A stretch of DNA of 14,419 nucleotides from Ignisphaera sp. (GCA_038821645.1 JAWBDT010000024.1:1-14419); one strand, 5' to 3'. Numbered from the stretch's first letter, positions 28 through 14,419 are shown. Translations and numbers: made by a program. The notes: generated by a model not told the origin, from the sequence alone.

Positions 28-1593
28 TTGGATGTAAGTATATGTGGAAAAGCACTTGTAGAACCTAGATTCTATGGCTCAGTAGAAGGCTACGTAATTG
101 TAGAACCATTCTCTAGAGATTCTCGAGAAACAGTTGTAAAGGTGTATATAAAGAATTATGGTTTTGGAAAGAGATACACTATAGATCTATTGGTATGTAA
201 TGATCTAGTTGAGAGAAGAAGTGCAAAACTTGAGGTAGGAGAGATTCTAGGGTTTGAGGTAGATGTTAGAGCTAGAGATAGATGTAGTGTGAAGCTTAAG
301 GTAGATGGATATACTATTGACTATATAGACCAGATGGTTGTGTACAGCGAGTACTCTAGACCTATATCTATTGTTATTGTTTTTCATCATCATCAACCTC
401 CAAACTATGGCCCAGATAAACGCTACTTATCTCTATGGCCCTTCATATATGTTTGGAGACCTATTCTCTCTCCCTATGGATTAGGTCCTTATCATTATCA
501 TGCCTCTATCTTGAGCAAGTATAGAGGATACACATATATAACGTATAATCTAAGTCCATCTCTATTAGCTCAATGGATAGATATAGTCGATAATGGTATC
601 ACAACAGTTTCAGGAGAATCAATAGAGAAATCATCAGGACTTGCACAAATAGTTAGAGAGGCTATGGATATGTATAGAAGTCTAGCAGAAAGCAACTCGA
701 TAGAGGTTTTAACAAGCATATATGCACATACTATAGCAGGCTATATCGTAGATCATCTAGAGCTTGATAGAGTTATCTCGAGAGAACTTGAATACGGATT
801 GAACATATCTAGAAAATTTCTAGGTAGAGATCCTAGAGGAATCTGGCTTCCCGAAATGTCTTTCTCTATGAAGCTCATACACATACTATCATCATTCAAT
901 CTCGAATACACATTTCTAGATGAGAGATATCACTTCCTATCATCACAAGGAGATAGAGAAAGTCCATATGAACCCTACATTGTGCAAGATGCTGTAACTG
1001 GAGAAAGTGTTGTTGTTTTCTTTAGAGATACAGAACTCAGCAACGATATAGGATTCAACAATAACTACTGTAGCGAGATTCATGCAATTAAGGGGGCATA
1101 TGCTTTTGTAACCAAACTATTGACAAAAGCGATCAATAATAGAGCTAGAGTTATAACACTAGCTCTAGATGGAGAAAACTGGATGATTGCTTCAAGAAAT
1201 CCACCAGCTACAGCAGTATTTCTAGATATTCTTCTAAACCTTTTTACCAAAATGAAGAAGATAGGTATAGCTAGAACTATACTTCCTAATGAAGTACTTA
1301 GAGATAATCCACCTAAAAAGAAACTTACATTTATACCATCAACAACATGGCTAGGCTCTTACACAAAATGGAGAGGTGAGGTCAAGGAGCACGAGGTATT
1401 CTGGAGAGAAGTAGAGTCTAGAGTAAAGAAGTTCAAAGAGTATATCAATAGGTATGGATATAATGAAAAAACTGAAAAAGCTGAATGGGCTCTATGGCAT
1501 ATACTTGATAGTGATTATTGGTGGGCAGAATTCTGGAGTAGAGAAGTAATATCTCTATGGATTAAAGAATTCGATAACCACATTAAGCACTAA
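28..1593 (+). CDS. Glycoside hydrolase family 57 protein (amylopullulanase/cyclomaltodextrinase-like) with a ~110-aa N-terminal beta-rich extension
   Basis: GH57 conserved regions: FHHHQP, GIWLPEM (nucleophile E276), ALDGENW (acid/base D381), ILDSDYWWAEFW. TTG start with AGGTG SD at 16-20. No signal peptide seen. Substrate specificity is inferred. Confidence 0.9.
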   Translation: MDVSICGKALVEPRFYGSVEGYVIVEPFSRDSRETVVKVYIKNYGFGKRYTIDLLVCNDLVERRSAKLEVGEILGFEVDVRARDRCSVKLKVDGYTIDYIDQMVVYSEYSRPISIVIVFHHHQPPNYGPDKRYLSLWPFIYVWRPILSPYGLGPYHYHASILSKYRGYTYITYNLSPSLLAQWIDIVDNGITTVSGESIEKSSGLAQIVREAMDMYRSLAESNSIEVLTSIYAHTIAGYIVDHLELDRVISRELEYGLNISRKFLGRDPRGIWLPEMSFSMKLIHILSSFNLEYTFLDERYHFLSSQGDRESPYEPYIVQDAVTGESVVVFFRDTELSNDIGFNNNYCSEIHAIKGAYAFVTKLLTKAINNRARVITLALDGENWMIASRNPPATAVFLDILLNLFTKMKKIGIARTILPNEVLRDNPPKKKLTFIPSTTWLGSYTKWRGEVKEHEVFWREVESRVKKFKEYINRYGYNEKTEKAEWALWHILDSDYWWAEFWSREVISLWIKEFDNHIKH

Positions 1594-1811
1594 ATCATTT
1601 TATTATTTAGCTGTGTTACCTAATCTATTCTTTAACAATGATGTATCTAGCCTAGGAAACATAGCTTAACTATTAATAAATATATAGAACTAGCTACAAC
1701 ATGAACTACTACAATTAGGTGGAAACTGTATGATATTATGAGTTATTTACTAAGAAGTTGAAGGTATAGGATCAAAATCTATATGCATCTCTATAGACTA
1801 GCTATTGCTCA

Positions 1812-2906
1812 TTATCTTGAATATTTATCATATATCTTGCTAAGTATACCACCTATTAATGCAGCAACAATATCGTCTGCTATTGGTGGTAGAAGCTTCA
1901 GTACCGGTGTTTCTCCTCTTTCTTTTAGTCTCTCAATCCAGTAGTACATGAGTAGACCTTTGAACCCGTTTATATATTCTGCTAGAGCTTTACCAACAAG
2001 TTCATCAACTATGATTCCTGGTGAATCTGATTTATACTCATGTATATTGACACCAGGTAAAATGTTTATGGAGAGTGCCGCTTCTAGCATTCTCATACCT
2101 TTTATGAATAGCAATATATTGGGATCTCTAAGAACTCTACCCATTTCCTCTCTCACTTCTTTCTCTATCTCGTTATCAGCTAGATGAGGTATTCTCGCTT
2201 TTGTGTAAACTTCTTTAGCTATGTCAATGACGTTATCTATTCGATCAAAACCTAGAGTCTTAGCAATATATTCTTCTCTAGATATGTTTCTTATGTGTCT
2301 AGCTAAAGCACATATAACAGCCATAGATGAAGCTATACCGACATCTGTAGATATTCCTGCAAATCTCTCATCACCAGCTGGTGCAGCAACTAGAGTTGCA
2401 TCAGATGCTGTACCTATAGATGGGCTAGAGATACACATAGGTCCTCCTAAACCCATAACCATACCCTTTACCTCTGATACTGTTCTAAATAGATCTAGAA
2501 GACCAATATTATTGAGCGGTGTATCTACAACTACAGCTACATTTATTGTACCAATTCCTCTAGAGTTTTTAGGACCTTCGGTACCTATACAAGATGGTGT
2601 ATCTATGCCTAGGGTTACAAATGCTTCAGCTTTTATGTTCCTGTATATAGAGAATCCATGGCTACATGAAGATACATCTACAGCTGTAAGGAATATAGAG
2701 GATTTTGAGTAGTCTATACCTATACTTGAGGCTATGTCTCGACAGTAGCTATCTAGATCAACATATTCAAAGTCTTTGGGCACTCTTCTGAAAACTATGT
2801 ACCTTATCTCTGAGTATATCTTTGGGCATCCAGCTGTAGATATAGCTACATATTCTCGCTCGAGATCTATTGTAAAAGTATCTTTATCTCTAGTCAGGAT
2901 TTTCAC
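1812..2906 (-). CDS. cbiS: Bifunctional adenosylcobinamide amidohydrolase (CbiZ) / alpha-ribazole-phosphate phosphatase (CobZ) fusion, CbiS-type
   Basis: The N-terminal ~205 aa carry CbiZ motifs FLTAVDV, GTINVAVV, TVSEVK, GTASDATLVA. The C-terminal ~150 aa match archaeal CobZ (PgpA-like): DPNI...LE, DELVGKALAEYING.KG, PPIADDIVAALIGGILSKIY. GTG start 6 nt after the cobT stop. Confidence 0.82.
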   Translation of the reverse strand: MKILTRDKDTFTIDLEREYVAISTAGCPKIYSEIRYIVFRRVPKDFEYVDLDSYCRDIASSIGIDYSKSSIFLTAVDVSSCSHGFSIYRNIKAEAFVTLGIDTPSCIGTEGPKNSRGIGTINVAVVVDTPLNNIGLLDLFRTVSEVKGMVMGLGGPMCISSPSIGTASDATLVAAPAGDERFAGISTDVGIASSMAVICALARHIRNISREEYIAKTLGFDRIDNVIDIAKEVYTKARIPHLADNEIEKEVREEMGRVLRDPNILLFIKGMRMLEAALSINILPGVNIHEYKSDSPGIIVDELVGKALAEYINGFKGLLMYYWIERLKERGETPVLKLLPPIADDIVAALIGGILSKIYDKYSR

Positions 2907-2912
2907 TATACC

Positions 2913-3992
2913 TCAACCACCTTGCTTTATCAATCTCTCGTACTCTATATATATAGCTTTCACTAAATCAGATACTTCTATGCCCTTGAGAATAGCTAGA
3001 AATGCTGTTCCTCCAGCACCTACACCTTCTTTAACGAATCCTTCTTCGTAAGCTCTAAGCCCATCAAAAGGTGCATCACTAAAATCTAGATAGCTATACA
3101 CAATAGACATCTGTGGTGCAACCGACTCTATGAAACTCGTTATCTCTCTACCTTTATCCATAACGATCCATCTAGTTGTTGCTAGAATCATTCTCTCTTG
3201 TCTAAACTCTGGAGATATTGCCTTCATGAGGGCTATTGCTGCCAGCATCTGGGTTCCACCAGCAAGAATTACAAAACTCTCTGCCTCAAGCGCACCTAGA
3301 GCTAGACCTGCTACAGATATGTGGAGAGGATCTCCAGCAACATCGTTTACAGTAAATGGATCTCTAGAGTTCTTGAGTCTTTCAATAGCTTTATTAGCGA
3401 CTAATCTCTTTAGGTCTACAGGATTGTTCTTCATCGAGCTACTGACCAGGTTATAGGCATTATAGCCAAGTCCCTGTAGAATGGCCATAGCTGTTGTAGT
3501 TCCACTAGGTATGCTTTCACCAACTAGTACAACATCTGTTGCAGAACCAAGCATATAGCCTATAGATCTAGCTTCTTCGAATAGTTTTTTCGATGTTCCT
3601 CGAGGTAACGCATCTTCTACATCTATTCTTCCACCTACACATCTGCTTGGAAGATCTATTACAGGTATTTTTGGGGTTATGTAGGATCCTGTGTTTACAA
3701 TTATGAAAGGTGTTCTAGATAGTTGGAGAGATACTCTCGTTATTATTGCTGGTGTTGGTATACCTGTAGGTGTTGTTGGTATTATGTCTAGTGTCACAGG
3801 TTTTCCGTAGTGAACATACTCTACATCAAGTGCTGGTGTAAATAGTGTTGCTATAGGCATAGCTCCAGCTATAGATATATTGGGTATAGTTGAAGTCATA
3901 GTTGATCCTATTGCATAGAGAGCTAGAGTTTTCCCATATCTAATCTTATCTAGAGGGATATCCCCATATATTACCTCAAACCCTTTAACCAT
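2913..3992 (-). CDS. cobT: Archaeal-type nicotinate-mononucleotide:base (DMB) phosphoribosyltransferase, MJ1598-like CobT
   Basis: Motifs GIPTPAIITR, VGESIPSGTTTA, LAGGTQM, YEEGFVKEGVGAGG. GAGGTGA SD 6 nt upstream of ATG. Cobamide-gene context. Confidence 0.9.
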   Translation of the reverse strand: MVKGFEVIYGDIPLDKIRYGKTLALYAIGSTMTSTIPNISIAGAMPIATLFTPALDVEYVHYGKPVTLDIIPTTPTGIPTPAIITRVSLQLSRTPFIIVNTGSYITPKIPVIDLPSRCVGGRIDVEDALPRGTSKKLFEEARSIGYMLGSATDVVLVGESIPSGTTTAMAILQGLGYNAYNLVSSSMKNNPVDLKRLVANKAIERLKNSRDPFTVNDVAGDPLHISVAGLALGALEAESFVILAGGTQMLAAIALMKAISPEFRQERMILATTRWIVMDKGREITSFIESVAPQMSIVYSYLDFSDAPFDGLRAYEEGFVKEGVGAGGTAFLAILKGIEVSDLVKAIYIEYERLIKQGG

Positions 3993-3998
3993 ACCGAA

Positions 3999-4005
3999 TC
4001 ACCTC
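3999..4005 (-). promoter_or_regulatory. Shine-Dalgarno site (GAGGTGA) of cobT
   Basis: tcacctc on the + strand, 6 nt from the ATG at 3992. Confidence 0.8.
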
Positions 4006-4026
4006 AAAACCTAGATCCAGGTCACC

Positions 4027-4809
4027 TTAATTTGATTTAGGTTTCGGAACAACGATTACGGTGTTATCCCCTATCTTTATAACCTCGATCTCTACACCAT
4101 ATACTTCTTCAACAACTTTATCCATAAACACTTCATGTGGTGATCCACAAGCCACAATTCTACCTCTATCTAAAAGGACAACAGTATCACAATATACTGA
4201 AGCTAGATGTAGATCATGGATAGCTACAACAGTTGCTATACCTTCTCTAACAGTATACCTCTTTACGTAATTGAGTATCTCGAATCTATATCTTATGTCT
4301 AGAAATGCTGAAGGTTCATCAAGTAACAGTATCTTGGGCTTCTTTGCTAATGCATGTGCTATTAACACTCTCTGTAGTTCTCCACTACTTATCTGGTCAA
4401 GTTTTCTCCCAAGGAGATGAACTATATCGAGCTCTCTAGCTATTTCCTCAATAATCTTTAGATCTTCAGATGATTCAAAGTATTGAAGAGTGTTGTGGTA
4501 GGGGTATCTAGCTGTTGAAAGAAAATCTAGTACAGTCATAGGTAGACTTCTAGATATATATGGTTCTGAATATGCGATAATCTTAGCTATATCCCTAGGG
4601 CTGTAAAGTCTAGAGTCTTTTCCATCGATATAAACCACACCTCTTGTTGGCATCAAGATAGATGCCAAGATCTTCAGAAACGTGGTTTTTCCAGCACCAT
4701 TAGGACCTATGATACATGTCATTTTTCCTGCTTCAATCTTTAGTGTAACGTCTTTTAGTATTGATGTAGAGTTGTAGTTGAATGAGACGTTCTCTACCTC
4801 TATCTTCAT
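4027..4809 (-). CDS. btuD: ABC transporter ATP-binding subunit, cobalamin/Fe-siderophore family (BtuD-like)
   Basis: Walker A GPNGAGKTT, signature ISSGELQR, Walker B LLLDEP, H-loop AIHD. ATGA overlap with the permease. Cobamide substrate inferred from context. Confidence 0.85.
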   Translation of the reverse strand: MKIEVENVSFNYNSTSILKDVTLKIEAGKMTCIIGPNGAGKTTFLKILASILMPTRGVVYIDGKDSRLYSPRDIAKIIAYSEPYISRSLPMTVLDFLSTARYPYHNTLQYFESSEDLKIIEEIARELDIVHLLGRKLDQISSGELQRVLIAHALAKKPKILLLDEPSAFLDIRYRFEILNYVKRYTVREGIATVVAIHDLHLASVYCDTVVLLDRGRIVACGSPHEVFMDKVVEEVYGVEIEVIKIGDNTVIVVPKPKSN

Positions 4810-5840
4810 CTCTTACCACTCTTAATGATTAGATATGCAAGAAAAGGTGCACCAATTATGCTTGTCACTACCCCTAACGGGAATTCTCCTTGTCTTGTTG
4901 TTACTGCAAGTATTCTAGCCAAAATATCTGCTGATGTTGCTAGTGAAGCGCCTATGAATATTGATAACGCTAGAGTTACTCTATGATCTGAAGAACCAGC
5001 TATCAGTCGAGCTATATGGGGTGCTGCAAGTCCTATAAACCCAACTATACCTACAACAGCAACTGTTGTACCTGTCAATAAGCTTGCTAGTAGAGCTGAT
5101 ATAATTGATAAAAGTTTTGGGTTATAGCCAAGTTGTTTAACAAAGCTATCTCCAAAAACATATACATTAAGTTTCTTCGGTAGTCCAAAGATGTATATAA
5201 AGAATGTGCAACACAGTAGAGTAGAGGTGAGTATTAAGACGTCTTGAGTAAGAGCTGTAGAGGTAGAGCCCATGAGTAGAAGATAATAAGGTGATTTTAG
5301 TTTGCTTTGAACTATATAGAGAAGAACATGAGATAAGCCTGAGAATATAGATGTAATAGCTATGCCCGAGAGTATGAGTGAGTATCCTGTTGAACCAGCT
5401 AAAACACTTAGAGCTGTAGTTAGAAGGTATCCAGCTATAGCCCCAATAAAAGCTATAACCATCATATAGTACCTATAGGCTATTACTGTAGGCCATATCA
5501 GGATAGCTATTGCTAGAGCTGTTAGAGCTGTTGAAGATAGCCCAAGGATATAGGGTTCAGCTAGAGGATTTCTAGCTATAGACTGTATCAATGTTCCTGA
5601 AAGAGCGAGAATAGCTCCAGTAAGTAGTGCTGTAGATGATCTTGCCAATCTGTAGCGAAGTATTGATTCAGAAATATCTCTACACTCTATCCCAAAAAGA
5701 CATAGAAATACATCTCTGATCGGCAACATAGAAGAACCTATAGATATTGAGACTATGTATATAAGACATAGAATTAGTATAGAGAATATGAGTGAAAAAA
5801 TAAATCTCTTAACATTCTGTTCATGTATCTCTAGAGCCAT
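4806..5840 (-). CDS. btuC: FecCD/BtuC-family ABC transporter permease
   Basis: Multiple hydrophobic helices; motifs RNPLAEPYILGLSS, GIVGFIGLAAPHIAR, PLGVVTSIIGAPF. Confidence 0.85.
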   Translation of the reverse strand: MALEIHEQNVKRFIFSLIFSILILCLIYIVSISIGSSMLPIRDVFLCLFGIECRDISESILRYRLARSSTALLTGAILALSGTLIQSIARNPLAEPYILGLSSTALTALAIAILIWPTVIAYRYYMMVIAFIGAIAGYLLTTALSVLAGSTGYSLILSGIAITSIFSGLSHVLLYIVQSKLKSPYYLLLMGSTSTALTQDVLILTSTLLCCTFFIYIFGLPKKLNVYVFGDSFVKQLGYNPKLLSIISALLASLLTGTTVAVVGIVGFIGLAAPHIARLIAGSSDHRVTLALSIFIGASLATSADILARILAVTTRQGEFPLGVVTSIIGAPFLAYLIIKSGKR

Positions 5841-5851
5841 AATCTATCCAC

Positions 5852-6967
5852 TTACTTATGCATCCTATAGACTATAGGTGTATCTGGTTCACCAAATATC
5901 TCTGGATAAAGTATCTTAGCGACAAGTACAACAGCTTTACCTACTCTAGGACCAGGTCTAACCAAGATATCGTTAGCCTCTTTATCCAATACATATGCCC
6001 TACCCTCTTTAAACGCTCTAGTATCGGTTAGAGGCGTTCCTCTAATCTCTTCTATTATTGCTGTATAGTTTGCACCCATAGCGCTTACTATAATCACATC
6101 AGGATTTTCTGCAATCACGAACTCATAATCAAGTTGAGGCCATCCAGTAAACCTCTGCGCTATATTGATTCCTCCTGCAGTTGATATAACCCATCCAATG
6201 AATGTATTTCCACCAGCGCTATAGAGTCCCCAGCTGGGTGGACCTGCGAGTTGAAGAACCTTTAGTTTCGTTACATTAGCTTCACCTAGTTTTTGAGTAA
6301 CGTACCTTATTTCGTTATCTATATCCTGTATGATTTTTCTAGCTATATCTTCTACCCCAAATATCTTCGCTATTGTTGCTATATCTTCATATATTTCATA
6401 GATATTGGTTGCTCCAGATCCTTTTATGTATATGATCTTTATTCCTGCTTCTTCAAGTCTTTCTCTAAGCTGTATATGTGGTCTTGTGCCAGAAGATCCT
6501 ATAACTAGATCAGGTTTGAGAGCAAGTATTTTCTCTACATCGGGTGTCCAGTAACCACCTATAACAGCTATCTTACCTTCTTCTACAAGTCTCAATACTT
6601 CTGGTGGATAGTTACAGTAGCTAGTCACACCAACAACTCTATCTCTAAGACCTAGAGCAAACAGTATCTCTGTTATAGATGGAGCTAATGAAACAACTCT
6701 CTCTGGAGTTTTCTCGAAAACAATACTTCTACCTAAAGCATCAACTATAGATATAGGAGTTTCTTGAACAACTGTTAGAGTTTCAATAACTGTTAGAGTT
6801 GTATATATAGGTGATGGTGTAATTGTTTTCTCAACCACATGTGTATACGTAACAGTAGCAGTAATTGTGGTGATGGTTGTAGGTGCTGTAGTCTGACCAA
6901 TGTAGTAGCCTCCTATCAGCATAACTATTGCTACAATGACTATGAGTCCTAGATACTTCATATCCAT
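5852..6967 (-). CDS. btuF: Membrane-anchored ABC substrate-binding protein (BtuF/cobamide-binding family) with Thr-rich stalk
   Basis: N-terminal hydrophobic helix, Thr-rich linker, then DALGR...PERVVSLAPSITEILFALG, EKILALKPDLVI, NPDVII, RPGPR, typical of helical-backbone binding proteins. Confidence 0.85.
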   Translation of the reverse strand: MDMKYLGLIVIVAIVMLIGGYYIGQTTAPTTITTITATVTYTHVVEKTITPSPIYTTLTVIETLTVVQETPISIVDALGRSIVFEKTPERVVSLAPSITEILFALGLRDRVVGVTSYCNYPPEVLRLVEEGKIAVIGGYWTPDVEKILALKPDLVIGSSGTRPHIQLRERLEEAGIKIIYIKGSGATNIYEIYEDIATIAKIFGVEDIARKIIQDIDNEIRYVTQKLGEANVTKLKVLQLAGPPSWGLYSAGGNTFIGWVISTAGGINIAQRFTGWPQLDYEFVIAENPDVIIVSAMGANYTAIIEEIRGTPLTDTRAFKEGRAYVLDKEANDILVRPGPRVGKAVVLVAKILYPEIFGEPDTPIVYRMHK

Positions 6968-6977
6968 GGCTTACCAC

Positions 6978-7002
6978 ACATATGGCTAGTCTAGCCATAT
7001 GT
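6978..7002. repeat. Perfect inverted repeat ACATATGGCTAG-T-CTAGCCATATGT (candidate operator or hairpin)
   Basis: 12-bp perfect arms with a 1-nt spacer, filling most of the 35-bp gap between the radical SAM stop and btuF. The repeat is directly seen; its function is inferred. Confidence 0.85.
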
Positions 7003-7821
7003 TCAGCCCGTATATAAGTTTTGCGTACTGTTTCTATCTAGAGGTCTAGGGTAGATGAGGTAGACTTCTCCCCTCAAGCCACTCGATATAGTTCTACCTC
7101 TTACATACACATTCTCTAGATATTTTGAGGCTTCTTGTTCTACTCTATCTAGTTCATCTATTGTAGGTTTTCTCCATAGAGCTCCTGGAACAGGTATGAA
7201 GGAGTCTATTATTAGCGGTATATCTCTATCTAATGACGCTATGAATTTAGCTAATCTACGTATCTCTTCAACATCATTGAAACCAGGTATCAGGATTGTC
7301 TCTATAGCTATGTTTATGTCTGCTTCATACATATTGATTATGTTGGTGAGAACTGGTTCTAGAGGAAAACCTGTGTATTCTTTATGTTTCTTTGGATCTA
7401 TATTCTTTACACTAGCTATAACTGTGACACGAGGATCTCTAAGTTCTTCAACTAGATCTCTACTCAGACTATAGGAGTTTGTAAGCATCTTGATCTCTAG
7501 TCCAAGATCCTTAAGCATTCTGGTAATCATAGCTATAGCTGGATCTATACTTGGTTCACCACCTCCTAGAACAACTCTCTTCATATTGTATACAGAGATT
7601 AGTTCTTTTGCTAGAGTCTCTAAACCTCTATAGGATAGAAATCCGCTAAATCTTAGACTCGAAATAGTTTCACTAGGTAGATGGCAATCCCATATAGATA
7701 GCCTTCTTATACACCCTAGACATCTAAAGTTGCAGTTGTAGAAGTGTATATAGGCTGAAGAATCATAGTCGAAGTAAACTATATGAAAAACATGTGTATA
7801 AATGTTATCGCTGTATTCTAT
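7003..7821 (-). CDS. Radical SAM protein (~272 aa), probable non-canonical ATA start; longer than the tracked 7003..7584 ORF
   Basis: The frame stays open upstream of the ATG at 7584 up to the TGA at 7830-7828 and encodes YIHFYNCNFRCLGCIRRLSIWDCHLP (CxxxCxxC at 7734-7711). GGGEP, MLTN and IETILIPG follow. The extension has no in-frame ATG/GTG/TTG. ATA at 7821 lies 6 nt after GGTGA. Confidence 0.85.
   Translation of the reverse strand: MEYSDNIYTHVFHIVYFDYDSSAYIHFYNCNFRCLGCIRRLSIWDCHLPSETISSLRFSGFLSYRGLETLAKELISVYNMKRVVLGGGEPSIDPAIAMITRMLKDLGLEIKMLTNSYSLSRDLVEELRDPRVTVIASVKNIDPKKHKEYTGFPLEPVLTNIINMYEADINIAIETILIPGFNDVEEIRRLAKFIASLDRDIPLIIDSFIPVPGALWRKPTIDELDRVEQEASKYLENVYVRGRTISSGLRGEVYLIYPRPLDRNSTQNLYTG
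7011..7025 (-). promoter_or_regulatory. Candidate internal BRE/TATA promoter for btuFCD-cobT-cbiS
   Basis: The minus strand reads CGCAAAAC-TTATATA, a purine-rich BRE followed by a TATA box, in the last codons of the radical SAM gene. Predicted TSS is about 6990. Confidence 0.6.
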
Positions 7822-7827
7822 AGATGG

Positions 7828-7865
7828 TCACCAAAGCTGTGGTGAGTTTAAACAAGATATATCTT
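7828..7865. promoter_or_regulatory. Three abutting palindromes upstream of the radical SAM gene, containing its SD and a possible TATA box
   Basis: TCACCA-AAGCTG-TGGTGA (7828-7845), GTTTAAAC (7846-7853), AAGATATATCTT (7854-7865). Confidence 0.55.
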
Positions 7866-7925
7866 CTTATGTATCTCTATTCAACTTATTAAACATGTGG
7901 GAATAGATGGTTCTGGCTATATTAT

Positions 7926-9023
7926 CTACTTTCTTTCTATACAGCACCTATAGCAAGCTTCTGCTAGATAAGCTATAATCTCTAGAGGAGCTGGTGGATA
8001 AACCTCTATATTGATCATCAATCCACTTGATTCTGTCTCTAGCTTCTCTACAGTGTTTCTAATGTAGTTCAAGATCTCTTCTCTAGATTTGTTGAGAATT
8101 AGATGCTCTTTATCGATATTGAGATCTATACATACTTTGCCTCTAAATAGGGAAGCGATATTGTCTATACCGTTAGCGCTATCCTGTATATTCAGCACAT
8201 CTACATCCATTTCTAGAAATACATTAGCTAGAGGAACTATGTTGCCATCGCTATGGAAGTATATAACAGCATTCATACTCTTCACCTCATTGAAAAATCT
8301 TCTATAGTATGGTAGAAAGTATTCTCTGAGATGATGCGGCTTTATCAGAGGAGAATCTTGTGCACCTAGATCCTCTAGAAATACAACAACATCAATTCCT
8401 CTATATCTCTTAACCACTTTAAGTAGACCAAGCTTGTATTCCGCAATCTTGTTTAAAGCTATAAGCAACCTCTCGTCACGTCTGTATAGAGCTGGAATAA
8501 GCTTGTTTAGAGGAACTAGATCCATAAGCTTCTGGAACAAGAAATGATGTAGGTTGAAGACTATGAGTCGACCGCGTTCTTTCAGTTTATCGAAATAGTT
8601 GAACAGTTCTTCCCATGGGATTAGAGGTCTAGGATCAGCAAAACCTACAGGATAGCCTGTTTCTGGATCAGGTAGAGACCATTCTCGAACTCTATCTAGA
8701 TCCTCTAGAGGATAGCGATGAGGTATACCGACAAACCCCTTTATCCTAAATCTCCAGATCGTTCCATAAACATCTACAGTATATCTATCTTCATAGATGT
8801 CTCTGGATTCTTCATCAAACCTCAGCTCTTCTGGATCGTAGTCAGGGAAAGCTAGAGGATATTTATTGATTATCTCGATGATCTTTTCTCTATAGATGTT
8901 TAGAATGGGTTGAGAAAGATTGATTCTACATGGCGTGAACATAGGTTTCTCAAGTCTGGCACACTTCAAGAAGTTTAGTCTATGTATTCTCCAAATCTCT
9001 TCAATATCTAGGCGAGTTTTCAC
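7926..9023 (-). CDS. Uroporphyrinogen decarboxylase (URO-D)/MtaA-CmuA-like TIM-barrel family protein, putative corrinoid-linked methyltransferase
   Basis: DVYGTIW, YPLEDL, FLEDLGAQDSPLIKP..LREYFLPYY, YFHSDGNIVPL, VDVLNIQ, P.APLE are typical of this superfamily. GTG start with AGGTGA SD at 9033-9038. Not recognisably HemE. Confidence 0.75.
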   Translation of the reverse strand: MKTRLDIEEIWRIHRLNFLKCARLEKPMFTPCRINLSQPILNIYREKIIEIINKYPLAFPDYDPEELRFDEESRDIYEDRYTVDVYGTIWRFRIKGFVGIPHRYPLEDLDRVREWSLPDPETGYPVGFADPRPLIPWEELFNYFDKLKERGRLIVFNLHHFLFQKLMDLVPLNKLIPALYRRDERLLIALNKIAEYKLGLLKVVKRYRGIDVVVFLEDLGAQDSPLIKPHHLREYFLPYYRRFFNEVKSMNAVIYFHSDGNIVPLANVFLEMDVDVLNIQDSANGIDNIASLFRGKVCIDLNIDKEHLILNKSREEILNYIRNTVEKLETESSGLMINIEVYPPAPLEIIAYLAEACYRCCIERK

Positions 9024-9148
9024 TAAATTTAGTCACCTTTATAGATCTCTTGCTGAAGCTGGATATAGGGTTTAGCGTATATCGAGAATTGTGATAAAGA
9101 TTTGAATACGTAGCAACATTCTCTATAGCTATAGGGTGGCTACATTAT

Positions 9149-10744
9149 ATGGCTAGAATACTTATCGTTACAAGTAGATTGGCTGAACCTATTGTTAGAG
9201 AAGCTGTTGCTCTCAGCAATACTAAACATCATGTAGAGATACTTGTGGCACCTGTTGATGTAGCTGCATTTCTGTCTACAGACTATATAGCTAAACTCTT
9301 GTTGAGTAGAGGTATTAAGAAGGGAGATTACGACTATATCCTTGTCCCTGGTCTAGCGAGAGGTTCTGGTAGAGTTGTTGAAGAAGCCATAGGTATAAAG
9401 ACCTTCAAGGGATGCACAATAGCTTACGATCTTACCGAGCTACTTAAGCTTGAGGATCTGAGTACCTTATCTGAAGATAGCCCTGCTGATGATATTCTTC
9501 AGAAACTTTTTATCGATAGGAATAAGAGGTTGTTGATTGAGGTAGAAGAGAAAGCACGTTTAAACGGTTTCTCTGTAGGAAATCTGCATATACCTCTGAT
9601 ACCTCCCCCGATAAGAGTTGCATCAGAAGTAGCGTTTGCTCATAGAGTCGATGAGTCGTTGCTCTACAAGAGGGTAGTGTATCTAATTGAGAGTGGAGCA
9701 GATATTGTGAGTCTCGGTTTCGAGGCTCTAGAGCCTCATCCTGATGATGTATATAGGATTGTTAGATTCTTGAAGAGAGAGTTTGATGTAGCTATAGCTA
9801 TCGATACACCGATTCCTAGCGAGATATCTAGAGGTGTTGAAGCTGGATGTGATATGGTTATAAACATAGACTTAACTAATATCGATAGAGTTGTAGACTA
9901 TGTTAAAGATGTAGCTGTAGTTGTTATTCCTCGAGATCCTTCAACAGGATCTATACCCTTTAGCTCTAGCCAAAGAGTTGAGCTATTGATTAAGACAATA
10001 GATTATGTAAAGAGCTTAGGTGTAGAAAAGATTCTAGCTGATGCTGTACTTGATCCTCCTGGCTCTACATTCAATTCAATGATTGCTTACCATAGCTTCA
10101 AGATGCTACATCCCGAGATCCCTATGTTCATGGGTATAGGCAATGTTGCAGAACTAGTTGATATAGATAGTGTAGGTGTTAATGCACTTCTTGTGCTACT
10201 TGCACAAGAGATAGGTGTAAGTGTTGTTCTGACTTCTGAATGTAGCACCAAGACCTATGGATCTACAAGAGAAACAAAGATAGCTACACAAATGGCAGCT
10301 CTAGCGAAAACCATGAAAACTATGCCGAAGAATCTAGGTATATCTCTTCTCATTCTTAAAGACAAGAAGAGAGTTAAGGTACCTCTAGATAGTGATGCAG
10401 AAATCGTTACAGCTACCGAAAAGGATACAGAATATGCTCTAGATCCTTTAGGTATCTTTAAGATAGATGTGAATCATGATGAAGGCTTTATAGAGGCTCT
10501 CTACATAGGCAGAAAGGGAAAGATATTGATAAGAGGTAAAACAGCGAAAGCAATACGAGACGAGATACTATCTAGAGAACTTGTTTCATCTCTCTCACAC
10601 GCAATATACCTAGGTATAGAGCTTGCTAAAGCTGAAGAAGCTCTAAGAACAGGTAAAAACTATATCCAGGAGCTCCCTTTATTCACATTACCGAAACCAA
10701 TAGAATTGAGGAATAGCGGTATTGAGACCTTAGCTAAGAAGTAG
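9149..10744 (+). CDS. Dihydropteroate-synthase-related pterin-binding protein (archaeal MJ0107-like) with C-terminal DUF4346-like domain
   Basis: N-terminal ILIVTSRLAE...VDVAAF...DYILVPG; TIM barrel GADIVSLG, IAIDT, ILADAVLDP, MGIGNVAELVDIDSVGVNALL, PKNLGISLLILKDK; C-terminal LDPLGIFKI...SHAIYLGIELAKAEEAL..GKNYIQE. Confidence 0.85.
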   Translation: MARILIVTSRLAEPIVREAVALSNTKHHVEILVAPVDVAAFLSTDYIAKLLLSRGIKKGDYDYILVPGLARGSGRVVEEAIGIKTFKGCTIAYDLTELLKLEDLSTLSEDSPADDILQKLFIDRNKRLLIEVEEKARLNGFSVGNLHIPLIPPPIRVASEVAFAHRVDESLLYKRVVYLIESGADIVSLGFEALEPHPDDVYRIVRFLKREFDVAIAIDTPIPSEISRGVEAGCDMVINIDLTNIDRVVDYVKDVAVVVIPRDPSTGSIPFSSSQRVELLIKTIDYVKSLGVEKILADAVLDPPGSTFNSMIAYHSFKMLHPEIPMFMGIGNVAELVDIDSVGVNALLVLLAQEIGVSVVLTSECSTKTYGSTRETKIATQMAALAKTMKTMPKNLGISLLILKDKKRVKVPLDSDAEIVTATEKDTEYALDPLGIFKIDVNHDEGFIEALYIGRKGKILIRGKTAKAIRDEILSRELVSSLSHAIYLGIELAKAEEALRTGKNYIQELPLFTLPKPIELRNSGIETLAKK

Positions 10745-11003
10745 AGGTGATAGATAGAGCTATCGATGAAGAATCCCAATACTAAAGAGATCATGTTACA
10801 GTGGTATCGATACTCTAGATTCTGTTGATAGTGGATTAGTTAAATCTATTTCTTAATAGCTATCAAACACATAGAAACCGTAGATACATTAAGATGATTT
10901 ACAGCATAAGACCTAGTTGAATTTGAATGAATGAGTAAGATTTTTATATCGTATATCTATAGCTATGTGTTCTTGGTGGTATGTTTAAGCTAGGTGTTGT
11001 GTA

Positions 11004-13514
11004 TTGAGTAGCAAATTGTCTCAAATCTCTATACCGATCATCATATCTATGGTTGTTATAGCTAGTGTAGCTGGAATCATTGGCTATATAGCTGGAGGCT
11101 CTAGAGCTCCAGTTACATATACACATACATATGTCTTAACATCACCAGTAACATCAACTAAAACAGTTACTGAAACAACTACATCAATTCTAACATCTAC
11201 CTTAATATCTACCTTGAGAGAAGCTGTAGAAACTACACATACTATCACTATGCCTACAACATATACACAAACAGTCACAATCACAAGAACAATTACAGCA
11301 TTACCTCAACAAACAGTTGTACCAGAAGGTAGTAGACTCTTCTACTTCTATCTCCCTTGGGATGATTCTATACAGACAGATATAAGTCTTGCTGATTATC
11401 TCCATAAACCTGCTGGTAAGTATGGTCATGTGTATGTGGGTAGCGATGGACGTCTCTATGTAGGTAACCAGAGGATAAGGTTCTTAGGCGTTAGTGTAGT
11501 GGGTCCAGGAGCTTTTCCGACGAAAGAGGAGGCAGAACTTATAGCTGCTAGATTAGCTAAATTTGGTGTAAATCTTGTTAGGTTTCATGCTCTTGACGCT
11601 AACTGGGAGCCTTACAACAATATATTTTCTCCTCCAGGTACAACTAGACTGAATCCAACGAATTTAGATAGAATGGACTATTTCGTTGCTCAACTAAAGA
11701 AGAATGGGATCTACATAAACATAAACTTGATGTGCTATAGACAATTCTCATCAGCTGACGGTCTTCCAAGTGAGGTAAACATTATGGCTGTTAAAGATCA
11801 GCATATACTGCCATTCTTCTATGAACCGGCTAGAGAACTTGTGAAAGACTTTGCTAGAGCTCTTCTAACTCATGTGAATCCCTATACAGGGTTATCATAT
11901 GCAGAAGATCCTGCAGTAGCTATGATAGAGATTCTTAATGAATATGGAGCTACTTTTGGATGGCTTGATGGAGCTGTAGATAGACTTCCAAAGGTTTTTA
12001 GAGATGCTTTAAGAGAGAAATGGAATCAGTTCCTCATAGAGAAATACGGTACTACAGAGAACTTGGTGAAGGCCTGGGGATCAGACAGTATTCTACCTGG
12101 AGAAAATCTGGAGAACAAGACTGTCGATGTATTTGATCTCAAGGACCTGATGCTGAAGAGACCTTCACAAAGAGCTCGAGAAGATTGGGCTGAATTTCTG
12201 TGGAGACTTGACTACGAGTATTTTATGGATATGTACAATTTCTTGAAGAACGAGCTAGGTGTTAAAGCCCTTATAGCTGGAACACAATCTGCTTGGGGAG
12301 GAATGCCGAACATAATGGCTCAACTAGATATTGTTGATGCACATCACTACTGGAGATATCCTGTTGGTTCTGGAAACAATTGGTATGTACAGAACGACGC
12401 TATGGTGAACTTTCCAGAGTCTAATACCTTATCTCAACTAGCTTTCAGAAGTGTCTATGGTAAGCCTTTCACAATAAGTGAATATAATCATCCTGCACCA
12501 AATATGTATAGAGCTGAAGGTTTTGTATTTCTATCAGCTTATGGAGCTCTTCAAGACTGGGATGCCTTAATGCCTTATAGCTATGGACCTTATACCTCAG
12601 GACATATAGCTATGGCAAGCTGGAACTCTATGATGATGAGAGGTACACTAGACTTTGATCAAGATCCAGCTAGATGGGCTATGATGATCACAGCATTTAT
12701 GCTTTTCGTAAGAGGTGATGTATCTCCAGCTAAACATTTTGTAGCTATAGAGATGGATAGAGAGATAGAGATACAGCTTGTAGCTACACAAAGAGCTAGT
12801 GCATGGAATATGCCCAATGGTGTTCATCTAAATATACCATACTATGTGCCTCTAATCCATAGAGCTAGACTAGTTGTAGCTAATACAACAAAACCTGTTG
12901 ACGCTCTTTCACCAAGAGATGTAAAACCACCTGAGGGAAGCATCATAAAGTCTGATACAGGTGAACTTATATGGGATTGTAGAGATGCTGGAAGATGCGT
13001 CTTTATTGTTAATACATCTAGAAGTATAGTTTTGACGGGCTTCATAAGCGGTAAGAGGTTCGATCTAGGAGATATAGTTATAGAAGTTAAAGATACTTTA
13101 CTAGATGGTTGGGCAACAATAGCTCTACATGTGCTAGAGGGAACAAGCTTTAGAGATGCCAGAAAAATACTCATAATAACTATAGGTGCAGCTTTTAACA
13201 ACAATATGCCTATCTATAACTTCGATAACAGGCAACTCTTATTTAGAACATCATTAAATCTAACGAAAGATGACTTAAGCAATCTCTATGGAAGAAAGAT
13301 ATCGAATTTCGGTAACTGGGGAAGAGGTCCAACAATTGTTGAAGGTATTGAGGCAACAATATCGATTAAAACAAATAGAAACATTATTGCATGGTCTTTA
13401 GACAATATAGGCAGAAAAACAAGATCACTTACTGTAGTAACTAGACAAGAATACAAAGACATACTACTGCTACCTACACATGGAACAATATGGTATCAAG
13501 CTGTAGTGTATTGA
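11004..13514 (+). CDS. Membrane-anchored/secreted multidomain clan GH-A (GH5-like) glycoside hydrolase with Thr-rich stalk
   Basis: TTG start with AGGTG SD (10992-10996), N-terminal hydrophobic helix, Thr-rich residues ~37-105. Catalytic barrel motifs RIRFLGV, GVNLVRFH, NPYTGLSYAEDPAVAMIEILNE (acid/base E313), DAHHYW, FTISEYNHP (nucleophile E493). Beta-rich C-terminal domains. Confidence 0.85.
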   Translation: MSSKLSQISIPIIISMVVIASVAGIIGYIAGGSRAPVTYTHTYVLTSPVTSTKTVTETTTSILTSTLISTLREAVETTHTITMPTTYTQTVTITRTITALPQQTVVPEGSRLFYFYLPWDDSIQTDISLADYLHKPAGKYGHVYVGSDGRLYVGNQRIRFLGVSVVGPGAFPTKEEAELIAARLAKFGVNLVRFHALDANWEPYNNIFSPPGTTRLNPTNLDRMDYFVAQLKKNGIYININLMCYRQFSSADGLPSEVNIMAVKDQHILPFFYEPARELVKDFARALLTHVNPYTGLSYAEDPAVAMIEILNEYGATFGWLDGAVDRLPKVFRDALREKWNQFLIEKYGTTENLVKAWGSDSILPGENLENKTVDVFDLKDLMLKRPSQRAREDWAEFLWRLDYEYFMDMYNFLKNELGVKALIAGTQSAWGGMPNIMAQLDIVDAHHYWRYPVGSGNNWYVQNDAMVNFPESNTLSQLAFRSVYGKPFTISEYNHPAPNMYRAEGFVFLSAYGALQDWDALMPYSYGPYTSGHIAMASWNSMMMRGTLDFDQDPARWAMMITAFMLFVRGDVSPAKHFVAIEMDREIEIQLVATQRASAWNMPNGVHLNIPYYVPLIHRARLVVANTTKPVDALSPRDVKPPEGSIIKSDTGELIWDCRDAGRCVFIVNTSRSIVLTGFISGKRFDLGDIVIEVKDTLLDGWATIALHVLEGTSFRDARKILIITIGAAFNNNMPIYNFDNRQLLFRTSLNLTKDDLSNLYGRKISNFGNWGRGPTIVEGIEATISIKTNRNIIAWSLDNIGRKTRSLTVVTRQEYKDILLLPTHGTIWYQAVVY

Positions 13515-13630: not shown

Positions 13631-13948
13631 GATGCATGAAATATACACTAAACCTGAATAGGGCTTAACCATTTTCTGAATTCTGTAGTACACTATCTCT
13701 ATATACTTTCTATCTAATGTTAGTGTTATCTTTATCTGGAGAGCGAAGAACATTGATACTATATATATCTAGTTCTCTAGATATCTTATGTTTCTATACT
13801 CTAGTTTATTGTTATCTTGATTCTAAATGTTTCTGAAGATGTTTTGTTTTAGAGAATGTATATCACCTCTTTAGCTGGAGAGTGATGAATATTTTTAACT
13901 GTTGTTCTTTAGTAAGTTTTTAACCGAACGTTTATTGGTGTGAAAACC

Positions 13949-14419
13949 TTGGATATAGTGGATGAAATAATTAAGCTAAAGAAAGAGACTGGAGCAGTCA
14001 TCTTGGCACATAACTATCAGTCTCCTGAAGTTCAAGATGTAGCAGATTTTGTTGGAGATAGCCTCGAACTTTCTGTGAAAGCTCTAGAGAGTAGAGCAAG
14101 AGTCATAGTATTTGCAGGTGTAGACTTTATGGCTGAACAAGCAGCTATTCTGAATGAGGATTCTATTGTCCTTCACCCTGATCCAGAAGCTCAATGCCCT
14201 ATGGCTCAAATGATAACTGTTGAAGAACTTAGAAAGTTCAAGAAGCTTTATCCAGAAGCTCCAGCTATAGTTTATGTTAATAGTCCTGCTATAGTTAAAG
14301 CAGAAGCAGATTATGTTGCTACTAGCGCTAATGTTGTTGAACTAGTTAGATCACTATCATCTGATGTAGTTATCTTTGGACCTGATGCTCATCTAGCTCA
14401 GTATATAGCTGAAAGAACT
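13949..14419 (+). CDS. nadA: Quinolinate synthase NadA, 5' part (runs off the window; absent from the ORF track)
   Basis: Translated by hand from TTG at 13949: MDIVDEIIKLKKETGAVILAHNYQSPEVQDVADFVGDSLELS...IVFAGVDFMAE...AQCPMAQM...VYVNS...TSAN...FGPD, matching NadA motifs. GGTG SD at 13937-13940. An alternative in-frame GTG is at 13940. Confidence 0.95.
   Translation, partial: MDIVDEIIKLKKETGAVILAHNYQSPEVQDVADFVGDSLELSVKALESRARVIVFAGVDFMAEQAAILNEDSIVLHPDPEAQCPMAQMITVEELRKFKKLYPEAPAIVYVNSPAIVKAEADYVATSANVVELVRSLSSDVVIFGPDAHLAQYIAERT

Follow-up and report, generated by a model that had tools for sequence, protein, structure and literature searches.

Gene content of the locus

The window analysed here is a 14,419-nucleotide stretch of DNA from Ignisphaera sp. 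(JAWBDT010000024.1:1-14419) which carries an operon for cobamide import and nucleotide-loop salvage and, beside it, a gene for a small radical S-adenosylmethionine (SAM) protein. Open reading frame (ORF) calls together with Pfam and NCBIfam searches place on the minus strand, in order of coordinates, a cbiZ-cobZ fusion (cbiS), cobT, btuD, btuC, btuF and the genes of the radical SAM protein and of a protein with the URO-D fold, with a DHPS-like gene transcribed divergently on the plus strand (Table 1). Counted upward from cbiS, the intergenic gaps are 6, 34, -4, 11, 35 and 104 bases, the negative value being an overlap of btuD and btuC. All genes, coordinates and strands given in an earlier note on this DNA were recovered, and its core reading of a corrinoid import and nucleotide-loop salvage operon is right by gene identities. 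Taken as a whole, that note held up for the salvage operon and its radical SAM companion, but not for its inclusion of the URO-D-like and DHPS-like genes in the same system.

BtuFCD proteins import corrinoids, CbiZ acts on adenosylated molecules of the cobinamide type, from which it removes the aminopropanol or nucleotide loop; the lower base is activated by CobT, and CobZ dephosphorylates the product. A CbiS fusion in Methanopyrus, and CobZ, have reportedly been described. BtuFCD, CbiZ, CobT and CobZ together constitute the archaeal cobinamide salvage pathway (PMC3541065), and the operon itself is of this already known kind. The CbiZ half of the fusion scores above the Pfam cut-off (PF01955, 115.5 bits, residues 15-200) and the CobZ half below that of its NCBIfam model (TIGR03161, 99.2 bits, residues 223-360; cut-off 152.5). 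The best NCBIfam match of the fusion is CbiS (NF038002, 197.5 bits; cut-off 250), which aligns from end to end (12-357 of 364).

All parts of a type II importer are present in the window (Table 1). The btuF-like protein possesses a threonine-rich linker and an N-terminal membrane anchor. The three importer proteins score below the cut-offs of the BtuF, BtuC and BtuD equivalog models (98 bits against 234 for the E. coli-type BtuF model NF002894), and heme, corrinoid and siderophore ABC ATPases stand near the top of the NCBIfam matches of the btuD-like protein, all below cut-off. A corrinoid is the putative substrate of this importer, given its operon with cobT and cbiS and the conservation of that gene context. 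Rfam and tRNA scans of the window identified no RNA gene and no riboswitch. None of the 11 window proteins scanned with Pfam reaches the cut-off for a B12-binding domain, in keeping with the earlier remark that the window lacks a DxHxxG corrinoid protein; the genome encodes two proteins of this type on other contigs.

Table 1. Features of the window, in order of position
Feature	Coordinates	Strand	Remarks
GH57-family protein	28-1593	+	Flanking gene
cbiZ-cobZ fusion (CbiS-like)	1812-2906	-	Adenosylcobinamide amidohydrolase and alpha-ribazole phosphatase domains
Archaeal-type CobT, lower-base phosphoribosyltransferase	2913-3992	-	TIGR00303 322.5 bits (above cut-off of 240); NF003372 385.7 bits
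btuD-like ABC ATPase	4027-4809	-	PF00005 98 bits
btuC-like FecCD permease	4806-5840	-	PF01032 238 bits
btuF-like substrate-binding protein (Peripla_BP_2)	5852-6967	-	PF01497 148 bits
Perfect 12+1+12 palindrome (25 bp), candidate operator	6978-7002		Between radical SAM stop codon (7003-7005) and btuF ATG (6967)
Radical SAM protein, orphan family	7003-7821	-	272 aa; PF04055
TTTAAA, possible TATA box of a leaderless radical SAM transcript	7847-7852	-	About 28 bases 5' of ATA; same in sister genome
URO-D/MtaA-fold protein	7926-9023	-	PF01208 36.8 bits
TIGR00284 DHPS-like protein (DUF6513, Pterin_bind, DUF4346)	9149-10744	+	407.8 bits (cut-off 256.65)
836-aa protein	11004-13514	+	Sub-threshold GH5 and GH42 only; no NCBIfam match
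Quinolinate synthase NadA, 5' part	13940-14419	+	Flanking gene; continues past window edge

Linkage of the radical SAM family to cobamide genes

Homologues of the radical SAM protein (40-45% identity) were identified in ten other genomes of the genus. In all seven loci with enough flanking sequence the gene adjoins btuFCD, or a second btuF-like gene (btuF2) divergent from btuF: five show a co-oriented btuF-btuC-btuD-radical SAM arrangement, and in two a btuF2-radical SAM pair is divergent from btuF-btuC-btuD-cobT-cbiS. A scan across phyla, using one genome per species, yielded 42 loci, 40 of them with family members (seven being the same contigs as loci already counted within the genus). A btuF, btuC or btuD homologue lies within 3 kb in 28/40, and either this or cobT/cbiS within 8 kb in 32/40. 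Among the carriers are Bathyarchaeia, Methanomethylicia, Nezhaarchaeales, Nitrososphaeria, Thermoproteales, Alkanophaga and Methanophagales, as well as two Omnitrophota bacteria. A position between btuF and btuC is seen in seven loci, and the stop and start codons often overlap there (L041 is an example).

When all ORFs up to 5 kb from the gene on each side were clustered without bias, in 43 loci and the window, BtuF-type proteins proved the commonest neighbours (32 loci), followed by BtuD (28), BtuC (27), DUF71 and CbiZ/CbiS (13 each), CobD-type aminotransferase (11), CbiB (10), CobT, CobS and AsnB-like proteins (6 each) and CobY-like proteins (5); no cluster unrelated to cobamides was present in more than three loci. 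Among 301 Thermoproteota genomes, 38 have a match at E <= 1e-25 and 25 are strong carriers (E <= 1e-50). CbiZ was identified in 22 of these 25, as against 71 of the 276 other genomes.

In a tree of 53 sequences the window copy groups with three Bathyarchaeia sequences (support 96/80), nested in a clade with copies from Aquificales, Thermodesulfobacteriota and Methanomethylicia (98/91). The other copies of the genus belong to a different clade, whose 11 rows (96/91) include one from Nezhaarchaeales and one from Methanomethylicota. The presence of two separate clades in one genus means that two lineages of the family have joined btuFCD, which is hard to explain without a shared function. The association with cobamide genes is strong, though not universal, and a functional link between this family and cobamide uptake or salvage is very probable. 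The suggestion that the radical SAM gene is a companion of cobamide genes is thus borne out by both neighbourhood and phylogenetic profiling across many lineages. No description of a radical SAM enzyme in btuFCD/cbiZ clusters was found in the literature covered (listings, with passages of PMC11697101 and PMC3541065; subscription journals and supplements lie outside this coverage). As far as these searches show, the gene is an undescribed accessory of cobamide uptake and salvage clusters.

Many cobamide clusters outside the genus encode a second, more distant small radical SAM paralogue beside the first (L041, L053, L054, L055, L058, L059, L062, L069, L071, L072 and L075), and in some of these a SPASM-type radical SAM gene or tetrapyrrole methylase genes, or the two together, are present as well. 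The genes of the Thermodesulfobacteriota homologues (L042 and L043; 49-52% identity) overlap an ATPase gene that belongs to a different ABC importer, possibly of the tungstate or molybdate type, which has a PBP_like_2 binding protein and an HTH_17/PBP_like regulator. In complete genomes of one genus (L085-L087) the neighbours of the family member are a double HbpS-like (PF03928) protein, an FAD oxidoreductase and another radical SAM protein, in place of btu genes.

Features of the radical SAM protein

The protein possesses a single [4Fe-4S] cluster motif, C31-N-F-R-C35-L-G-C38 (CX3CX2C), invariant in 34/34 family sequences, and with four cysteines in total it has no auxiliary cluster. Also invariant in these 34 sequences are T10 and H14 before the cluster, D46-x-H48 just after it, GGEP (88-91), T115-N116, K140, Y150-T151, N161, E175, D207 and W217. 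G88-G-E90-P91 is the conserved glycine-rich SAM-binding motif. A profile of the family, built from 16 sequences, matched 94 cluster representatives at E <= 1e-30 among 1.84 billion proteins; with so few, the family is small. No fusions were detected among longer proteins at E <= 1e-20, which is weak evidence, and the longer profile matches had no corrinoid-related domain.

Every Foldseek match of the AlphaFold 2 model (pLDDT 91) is a radical SAM core, the best being pyruvate formate-lyase (PFL) activase (3c8f; E 4e-13, TM-score 0.63-0.70), followed by NifB, SuiB and MoaA. The predicted fold resembles the compact, open kind used for bulky substrates, a resemblance and not a test. All NCBIfam matches score far below their cut-offs. 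The best include glycyl-radical activases (TIGR02494, 47.6 bits against 174.35), and MoaA reaches 54 bits against 284 (TIGR02666), the four cysteines leaving no room for a second cluster. No ThiC/BzaF-type or B12-binding domain was recognised: Pfam gave PF04055 and a sub-threshold PF02310, and the best 25 of 29 NCBIfam matches include no such model.

A palindrome at the btuF start and a candidate cobamide regulon

The 21-mer core of the palindrome before btuF, ATATGGCTAG-N-CTAGCCATAT, occurs at three sites in the genome when up to three mismatches are allowed, and at none in five shuffled genomes. The first site is the window copy. The second lies on contig 12 of this genome (G000; about 37718-37738, L084:4719-4739), 21 bases before an ORF for a corrinoid protein with a DIHDIG (DxHxxG) motif, whose operon also encodes a 436-aa URO-D-like protein and an MFS protein and adjoins the gene of methenyl-tetrahydromethanopterin (H4MPT) cyclohydrolase. 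The third is on contig 22 (7573-7593, L083), in the divergent cbiG/hemA region, where it overlaps the hemA ATG and has a weaker second site nearby. A fourth match to a looser pattern (C21:4044) was rejected as chance, since it lies inside a phosphohexomutase-like ORF across the TASHNP motif, and sites with four or five mismatches were set aside as being mostly other AT-rich palindromes.

In a set of 14 btu, btuF2 and cobT loci of relatives, all related sites, again at up to three mismatches, are at gene starts (btuF in 10 loci, btuF2 in 4, cobT in 1). They come from 10 relatives, and the final AT of the palindrome plus a G is often the ATG start codon itself. No copy lies upstream of the URO-D-like, DHPS-like or radical SAM genes of the window, and none near the URO-D-like orthologues (L014-L023). 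From its positions we infer that the palindrome serves a cobamide regulon as its operator, most likely as a binding site for a repressor that overlies the start of transcription. On this reading the genes from btuF to cbiS would keep a regulated promoter of their own in the window, the radical SAM gene having been placed upstream of it. The literature covered, with the exclusions given above, holds no description of an archaeal B12 regulon; if the assignment is true, this would be the first B12 regulon operator described in archaea, and the 21-bp sequence, used as bait, offers a concrete handle on archaeal cobamide sensing.

Cobamide metabolism elsewhere in the genome

Other parts of the pathway were identified on other contigs. 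Contig 19 encodes CbiB and CobS, whose neighbours are a DUF71 protein (TTX_0299 family), an AsnB-like protein and one weakly like SerK. The last, a protein of 231 aa (L081:6074-6769, minus strand) encoded between the DUF71 gene and cbiB, shows a weak likeness (E 7e-11) to SerK, the ADP-dependent L-serine kinase, and is a candidate for the missing archaeal threonine/serine kinase of the aminopropanol/ethanolamine linker. A PduO-type adenosyltransferase is present in this genome and in two without the radical SAM gene (5/5 genomes tested); CobA was not found in this genome, and neither was methylmalonyl-CoA mutase.

Contig 22 (900-11200, L083) carries genes for CbiG, five TP_methylases, CbiD, a CbiX-CbiC fusion and a CbiT-like protein along with hemA, hemB and hemL, and looks like an anaerobic de novo corrin cluster. 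Four other genomes of the genus yielded no CbiC; this organism may thus make corrinoids as well as scavenge them.

The btuF2 gene of this genome (contig 8, L080:5938-6735) encodes a BtuF-like protein of 265 aa with neither signal peptide nor anchor, presumably cytoplasmic. It has counterparts in 13 of the 16 other genomes of the genus, and they also occur in four genomes in which the radical SAM gene was not found (G002, G009, G012 and G014). Loci of this type elsewhere are L024, L025, L027, L029, L033, L041 and L077; in several genomes the gene lies beside the radical SAM gene or cobT, and in four loci the palindrome precedes it. A predicted complex of the radical SAM protein with the cytoplasmic BtuF-like protein scored 0.02, which is evidence neither way.

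Pairs of corrinoid-protein and URO-D-like genes also exist in the genome, among them the one beside the cyclohydrolase gene. On contig 16 (L082:5170-8570) a 449-aa URO-D-like protein, a corrinoid protein and a 424-aa protein weakly like glucuronate isomerase are encoded in a row; as a speculation, this row could serve the corrinoid-dependent demethylation of a methylated sugar acid.

Proposed role of the radical SAM enzyme

The reading we prefer, with a probability of about two thirds, is that 1812-7821 serves an Ignisphaera archaeon as a unit for cobamide import and nucleotide-loop salvage, with a palindrome at the promoter of btuF to cbiS and a small radical SAM enzyme that acts on the imported corrinoid or an intermediate, and that the URO-D-like and DHPS-like genes are separate from it. 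BtuFCD would import corrinoids, the CbiZ half of the fusion would strip the loop, CobT would activate the lower base and the CobZ half would dephosphorylate the product, with CbiB, CobS and the PduO-type adenosyltransferase supplied from elsewhere in the genome. The radical SAM enzyme would direct a 5'-deoxyadenosyl radical at the imported corrinoid or a salvage intermediate soon after import, before or alongside the rebuilding of the loop; repair, upper-ligand chemistry and side-chain chemistry are possible reactions. The genes from btuF to cbiS would run from their own promoter region, with a repressor probably binding the palindrome over the transcript start.

That the enzyme acts directly on a corrinoid, taken by itself, is put at a little under even odds. 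More tentative is a joint proposal in which the family performs an undescribed, import-coupled step of anaerobic salvage in thermophilic archaea (for example, radical repair or re-tailoring of corrinoids that are scavenged, heat-damaged or wrongly liganded), alongside the DUF71/AsnB-like amidating enzymes and the cytoplasmic BtuF-like carrier, while a protein regulator on the palindrome runs import, synthesis and the corrinoid methyltransferase operon; we regard it as possible, with the odds against it. Radical adenosylation in place of an ATP:corrinoid adenosyltransferase was also considered and weighed down by the presence of PduO in 5/5 genomes with or without the gene. Because the radical SAM gene shares an operon with PduO in one locus (L076) and overlaps CobA in another (L066), a substitute adenosyltransferase is disfavoured.

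Several observations weigh against the preferred reading. The same operons with PduO and CobA speak against one attractive reaction, direct radical adenosylation. The gene in the window has no canonical start codon and no copy of the palindrome, and is sited upstream of it. Eight of the 40 family loci have no btu, cobT or cbiS context: two are on very short contigs, one ends just past a CobY-like gene, two have DUF71 adjacent, two Thermodesulfobacteriota copies follow the different (PBP_like_2) ABC transporter and one Aquificales copy has no cobamide gene nearby. Eleven further loci taken from the Thermoproteota sample (one being the same contig as L064) have btuFCD adjacent in four cases, DUF71 nearby in two and no cobamide gene in five, three of the latter coming from one genus with the HbpS-like protein, FAD oxidoreductase and other radical SAM gene as neighbours. 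Two relatives (G011 and G038) carry btuFCD-cobT-cbiS operons that do without the radical SAM gene, which is therefore dispensable. Related genomes are also not independent of each other, so the counts of linkage and co-occurrence overstate the support.

The enzyme could instead make or tailor the lower ligand, or a small precursor for CobT or CbiB, and leave the corrin untouched. The earlier note had drawn such an analogy with anaerobic benzimidazole synthesis, which uses radical SAM chemistry. Proximity to cobT or cbiS (within 8 kb in 14/40 loci) speaks for it, as do the closest Bathyarchaeia homologues, which lie beside cobY-like, cobS, DUF71 and cobT genes with btuFCD farther away. The analogy finds no support in the sequence, which resembles small PFL-activase-like enzymes and neither ThiC/BzaF nor the radical SAM methylases that bind B12 (PF04055 is the one Pfam domain listed, and none for B12 binding attains its cut-off). 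The transporter is, moreover, the tightest and commonest partner, with BtuF-type proteins outnumbering CobT 32 to 6 as neighbours and the gene often inserted between btuF and btuC, and the family occurs in seemingly pure salvagers (CbiC was not found in G006 or G015). We consider a lower-ligand role unlikely.

A protein substrate is improbable. Here the enzyme, acting in the manner of PFL activase, would mature or install a radical in BtuF, the cytoplasmic BtuF-like protein or an enzyme that depends on B12, as its nearest solved fold, the glycyl-radical activases among its best NCBIfam matches and the frequency of BtuF-type neighbours would allow. Its scores are far below every activase cut-off, and no glycyl-radical enzyme was identified in the Pfam scan, which took in only the 11 proteins of the window. 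BtuF is extracytoplasmic, and the cytoplasmic BtuF-like gene also occurs in the four genomes in which the radical SAM gene was not found.

Although the pathway of cobamide salvage is regarded as closed, a conserved enzyme resides inside its clusters in several archaeal phyla and in Omnitrophota, the carriers including Bathyarchaeia, Methanomethylicia, alkane- and methane-oxidising archaea and Nitrososphaeria of hot springs. Its substrate, once found, would add a step to the B12 metabolism of anaerobes, possibly a new radical SAM reaction on the corrin.

Translation start and integrity of the radical SAM gene

The radical SAM frame is open from 7827, but the stretch that precedes its CX3CX2C motif contains neither ATG nor GTG nor TTG, the earliest of these codons (at 7584) lying past the motif. 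Translation probably starts at an ATA codon at 7821, which gives the 272-aa product. The same ATA is found at the equivalent position in a sister genome (G004), where the 50 bases upstream are identical, and a 94% identical NCBI protein, also of 272 aa, begins at the same position. Independent contigs were available for comparison: 6900-9100 is spanned in full by those of three runs, which come from three other studies, and by those of a fourth run except for about 7579-7787. These four runs show no indel, and no base change within 7652-7900. Because independent contigs agree, the missing canonical start is not an assembly error. The gene differs from that of the sister genome by 11 synonymous and 15 non-synonymous changes, with a dN/dS of 0.38 (0.39 for btuF), and we read it as a live gene with an unusual start. 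The position of the TTTAAA motif would fit a leaderless transcript.

These findings bear on whether the gene is a mere passenger here, horizontally acquired, perhaps untranslated and landed upstream of btuF by chance. The lack of an ATG, GTG or TTG start, the grouping of the window copy with Bathyarchaeia and not with its genus, its place outside the promoter marked by the palindrome and the absence of a radical SAM gene from the nearest orthologous btuFCD-cobT-cbiS operon (G011) would all be expected of a passenger. Its 272-codon frame is intact in two genomes that differ by 26 substitutions at the dN/dS given above, the ATA and the 50 bases upstream are identical in both, the same sequence recurs in contigs of four runs, and a chance landing beside btuF is unlikely for a family that sits there in most other lineages; a passenger gene is accordingly hard to credit.

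The URO-D-like and DHPS-like genes

The URO-D-like protein matches PF01208 in its C-terminal half only (cut-off 23.9 bits). Its AlphaFold 2 model (pLDDT 90.6) is closest in Foldseek to MtaA (4ay8, TM-score 0.62-0.66) and then to UROD, and a profile of its family matches CdmB (9rui, E 6e-14), MtaA (4ay7, 5.7e-9) and UROD (1e-5); searches of the PDB with the single sequences of this protein and of the DHPS-like protein gave no match. CdmB is the substrate-side methyltransferase of a corrinoid-dependent chloromethane system (PMC13222342). The score against the MtaA/CmuA model (TIGR01463) is 25.2 bits, with a cut-off of 235.4. In the profile alignment the LHICGN of MtaA (H-x-C) pairs with FHSDGN of the family, in which H257, S258 and D259 are nearly invariant, and an H-x-C...C zinc site of the MtaA type is therefore lacking, H-S-D standing in its place. 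The residues of MtaA compared here are those which we take to bind zinc. The protein is plausibly a corrinoid-type methyltransferase. As such it would use B12, but it has no partner here and lies outside the regulon.

Full-length orthologues (57-98% identity) were identified in 11 other genomes, with up to 9 kb of flanking sequence on each side and less at contig ends. The layout of the window is kept only in the sister genome, which is 94-99% identical over all genes. None of the other ten loci (0/10) has btuF or btuC, cobT, cbiS, the DHPS-like gene or a radical SAM gene of the window type; the weak exceptions are generic ABC ATPases of 26-28% identity (L016 and L021) and a member of the radical SAM superfamily of 27% identity 8 kb away (L021). 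One orthologue (L022) has a B12-binding corrinoid protein encoded 800 bases downstream. The neighbours vary by genome (MFS, DUF2139, UvdE, DUF72, LUD/CCG, MgtE, GH4, PfkB, GH31 and others among 34 proteins scanned). A GH4-UROD-MgtE arrangement is common to three genomes, in two of which a homologue of the glycosidase-like 836-aa gene is also nearby, and on the strength of these shared glycoside hydrolase-type surroundings the URO-D-like gene belongs to the right-hand, sugar-related neighbourhood of the window. Synteny breaks between it and the radical SAM gene. The 836-aa protein also has a 56% identical paralogue on contig 27. The genes at the two ends of the window are ordinary (Table 1).

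The DHPS-like protein aligns with TIGR00284 over its full length (residues 3-511, model positions 2-497), well above the cut-off. This family, which we take to be a housekeeping pterin-condensing enzyme of methanopterin-type cofactor synthesis (no paper on it in this role was found), is near-universal and single-copy: it was identified in 39/41 relatives, in 29/29 of the high-quality ones and in all 20 genera, as well as in the controls M. jannaschii, S. acidocaldarius and M. acetivorans. Seven relatives in which cobT was not found possess it (G026-G029, G032, G033 and G035). In the five genomes checked (G006, G007, G008, G011 and G015) it lies on other contigs than the btu loci or hundreds of kb from them; the one exception is a further metagenome-assembled genome (L076), in which it is divergent from btuF.

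Both genes had been proposed as parts of one system with the salvage genes; near-universal, independent of cobT and usually unlinked in the one case, unlinked to cobamide genes in 10/10 other genomes in the other, and without a palindrome in either, they are neighbours outside the salvage unit, the DHPS-like gene a housekeeping one, and can be removed as false leads. An integrated system of radical SAM, URO-D-like, DHPS-like and salvage genes, with a host-made lower ligand and pterin-cobamide methyl transfer, is very improbable and largely refuted by the lack of linkage of these two genes to cobamide genes in other genomes, an outcome that the earlier note had named as refuting it: adjacency in the window and its sister genome, the MtaA/CdmB fold, the corrinoid protein at L022, the divergent pair at L076 and the corrinoid-protein/URO-D-like pairs elsewhere in the genome are outweighed by the distributions above and by the uncorrelated presence of the URO-D-like and radical SAM genes across the genus. 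The pterin-cobamide methyl route is not supported for the window locus, but may exist at other loci, as those pairs suggest.

Relation to known systems

The operon shares with archaeal cobinamide salvage and the CbiS of Methanopyrus the same gene set, a fused CbiZ-CobZ and an archaeal CobT above cut-off, with CbiB, CobS and the adenosyltransferase encoded elsewhere in the genome. It differs in the attached radical SAM gene, which corresponds to no step in the described pathway, and in its scores below the cut-offs of the CbiS and BtuF models. With MtaABC and CdmBCA the window has in common only the URO-D-like protein, which shares the fold and whose profile matches both CdmB and MtaA; unlike in those systems it is without a corrinoid protein, has H-S-D for H-x-C and scores 25 bits against 235 for MtaA/CmuA.

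As regards regulation, bacterial B12 riboswitches and B12-sensing regulators likewise place one signal upstream of genes for uptake, synthesis and B12-dependent enzymes. The signal here is an archaeal DNA palindrome overlapping start codons, in a window without an Rfam riboswitch, and to our knowledge Archaea have no known B12 riboswitches.

The radical SAM protein resembles PFL activase (3c8f) in its compact partial barrel and single CX3CX2C motif, but with 17% identity, a score below the family cut-off, no glycyl-radical partner in the window and a signature of its own in the invariant T-x3-H before the cluster and D-x-H after it. BzaF/BzaAB and BzaD/E represent radical SAM chemistry in cobamide metabolism too; the window has no ThiC-type or B12-binding domain, and the linkage of its family is more to import than to cobT. 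ChuW and HutW are radical SAM enzymes encoded in anaerobic heme-uptake operons, and they offer a parallel in which such an enzyme lies beside a tetrapyrrole importer of the FecCD/Peripla_BP_2 type and presumably acts on the imported macrocycle. ChuW, which is HemN-like and about 450 aa long, frees the iron by opening the ring, whereas the protein described here is PFL-activase-like, has 272 aa and is encoded beside genes that rebuild the cofactor.

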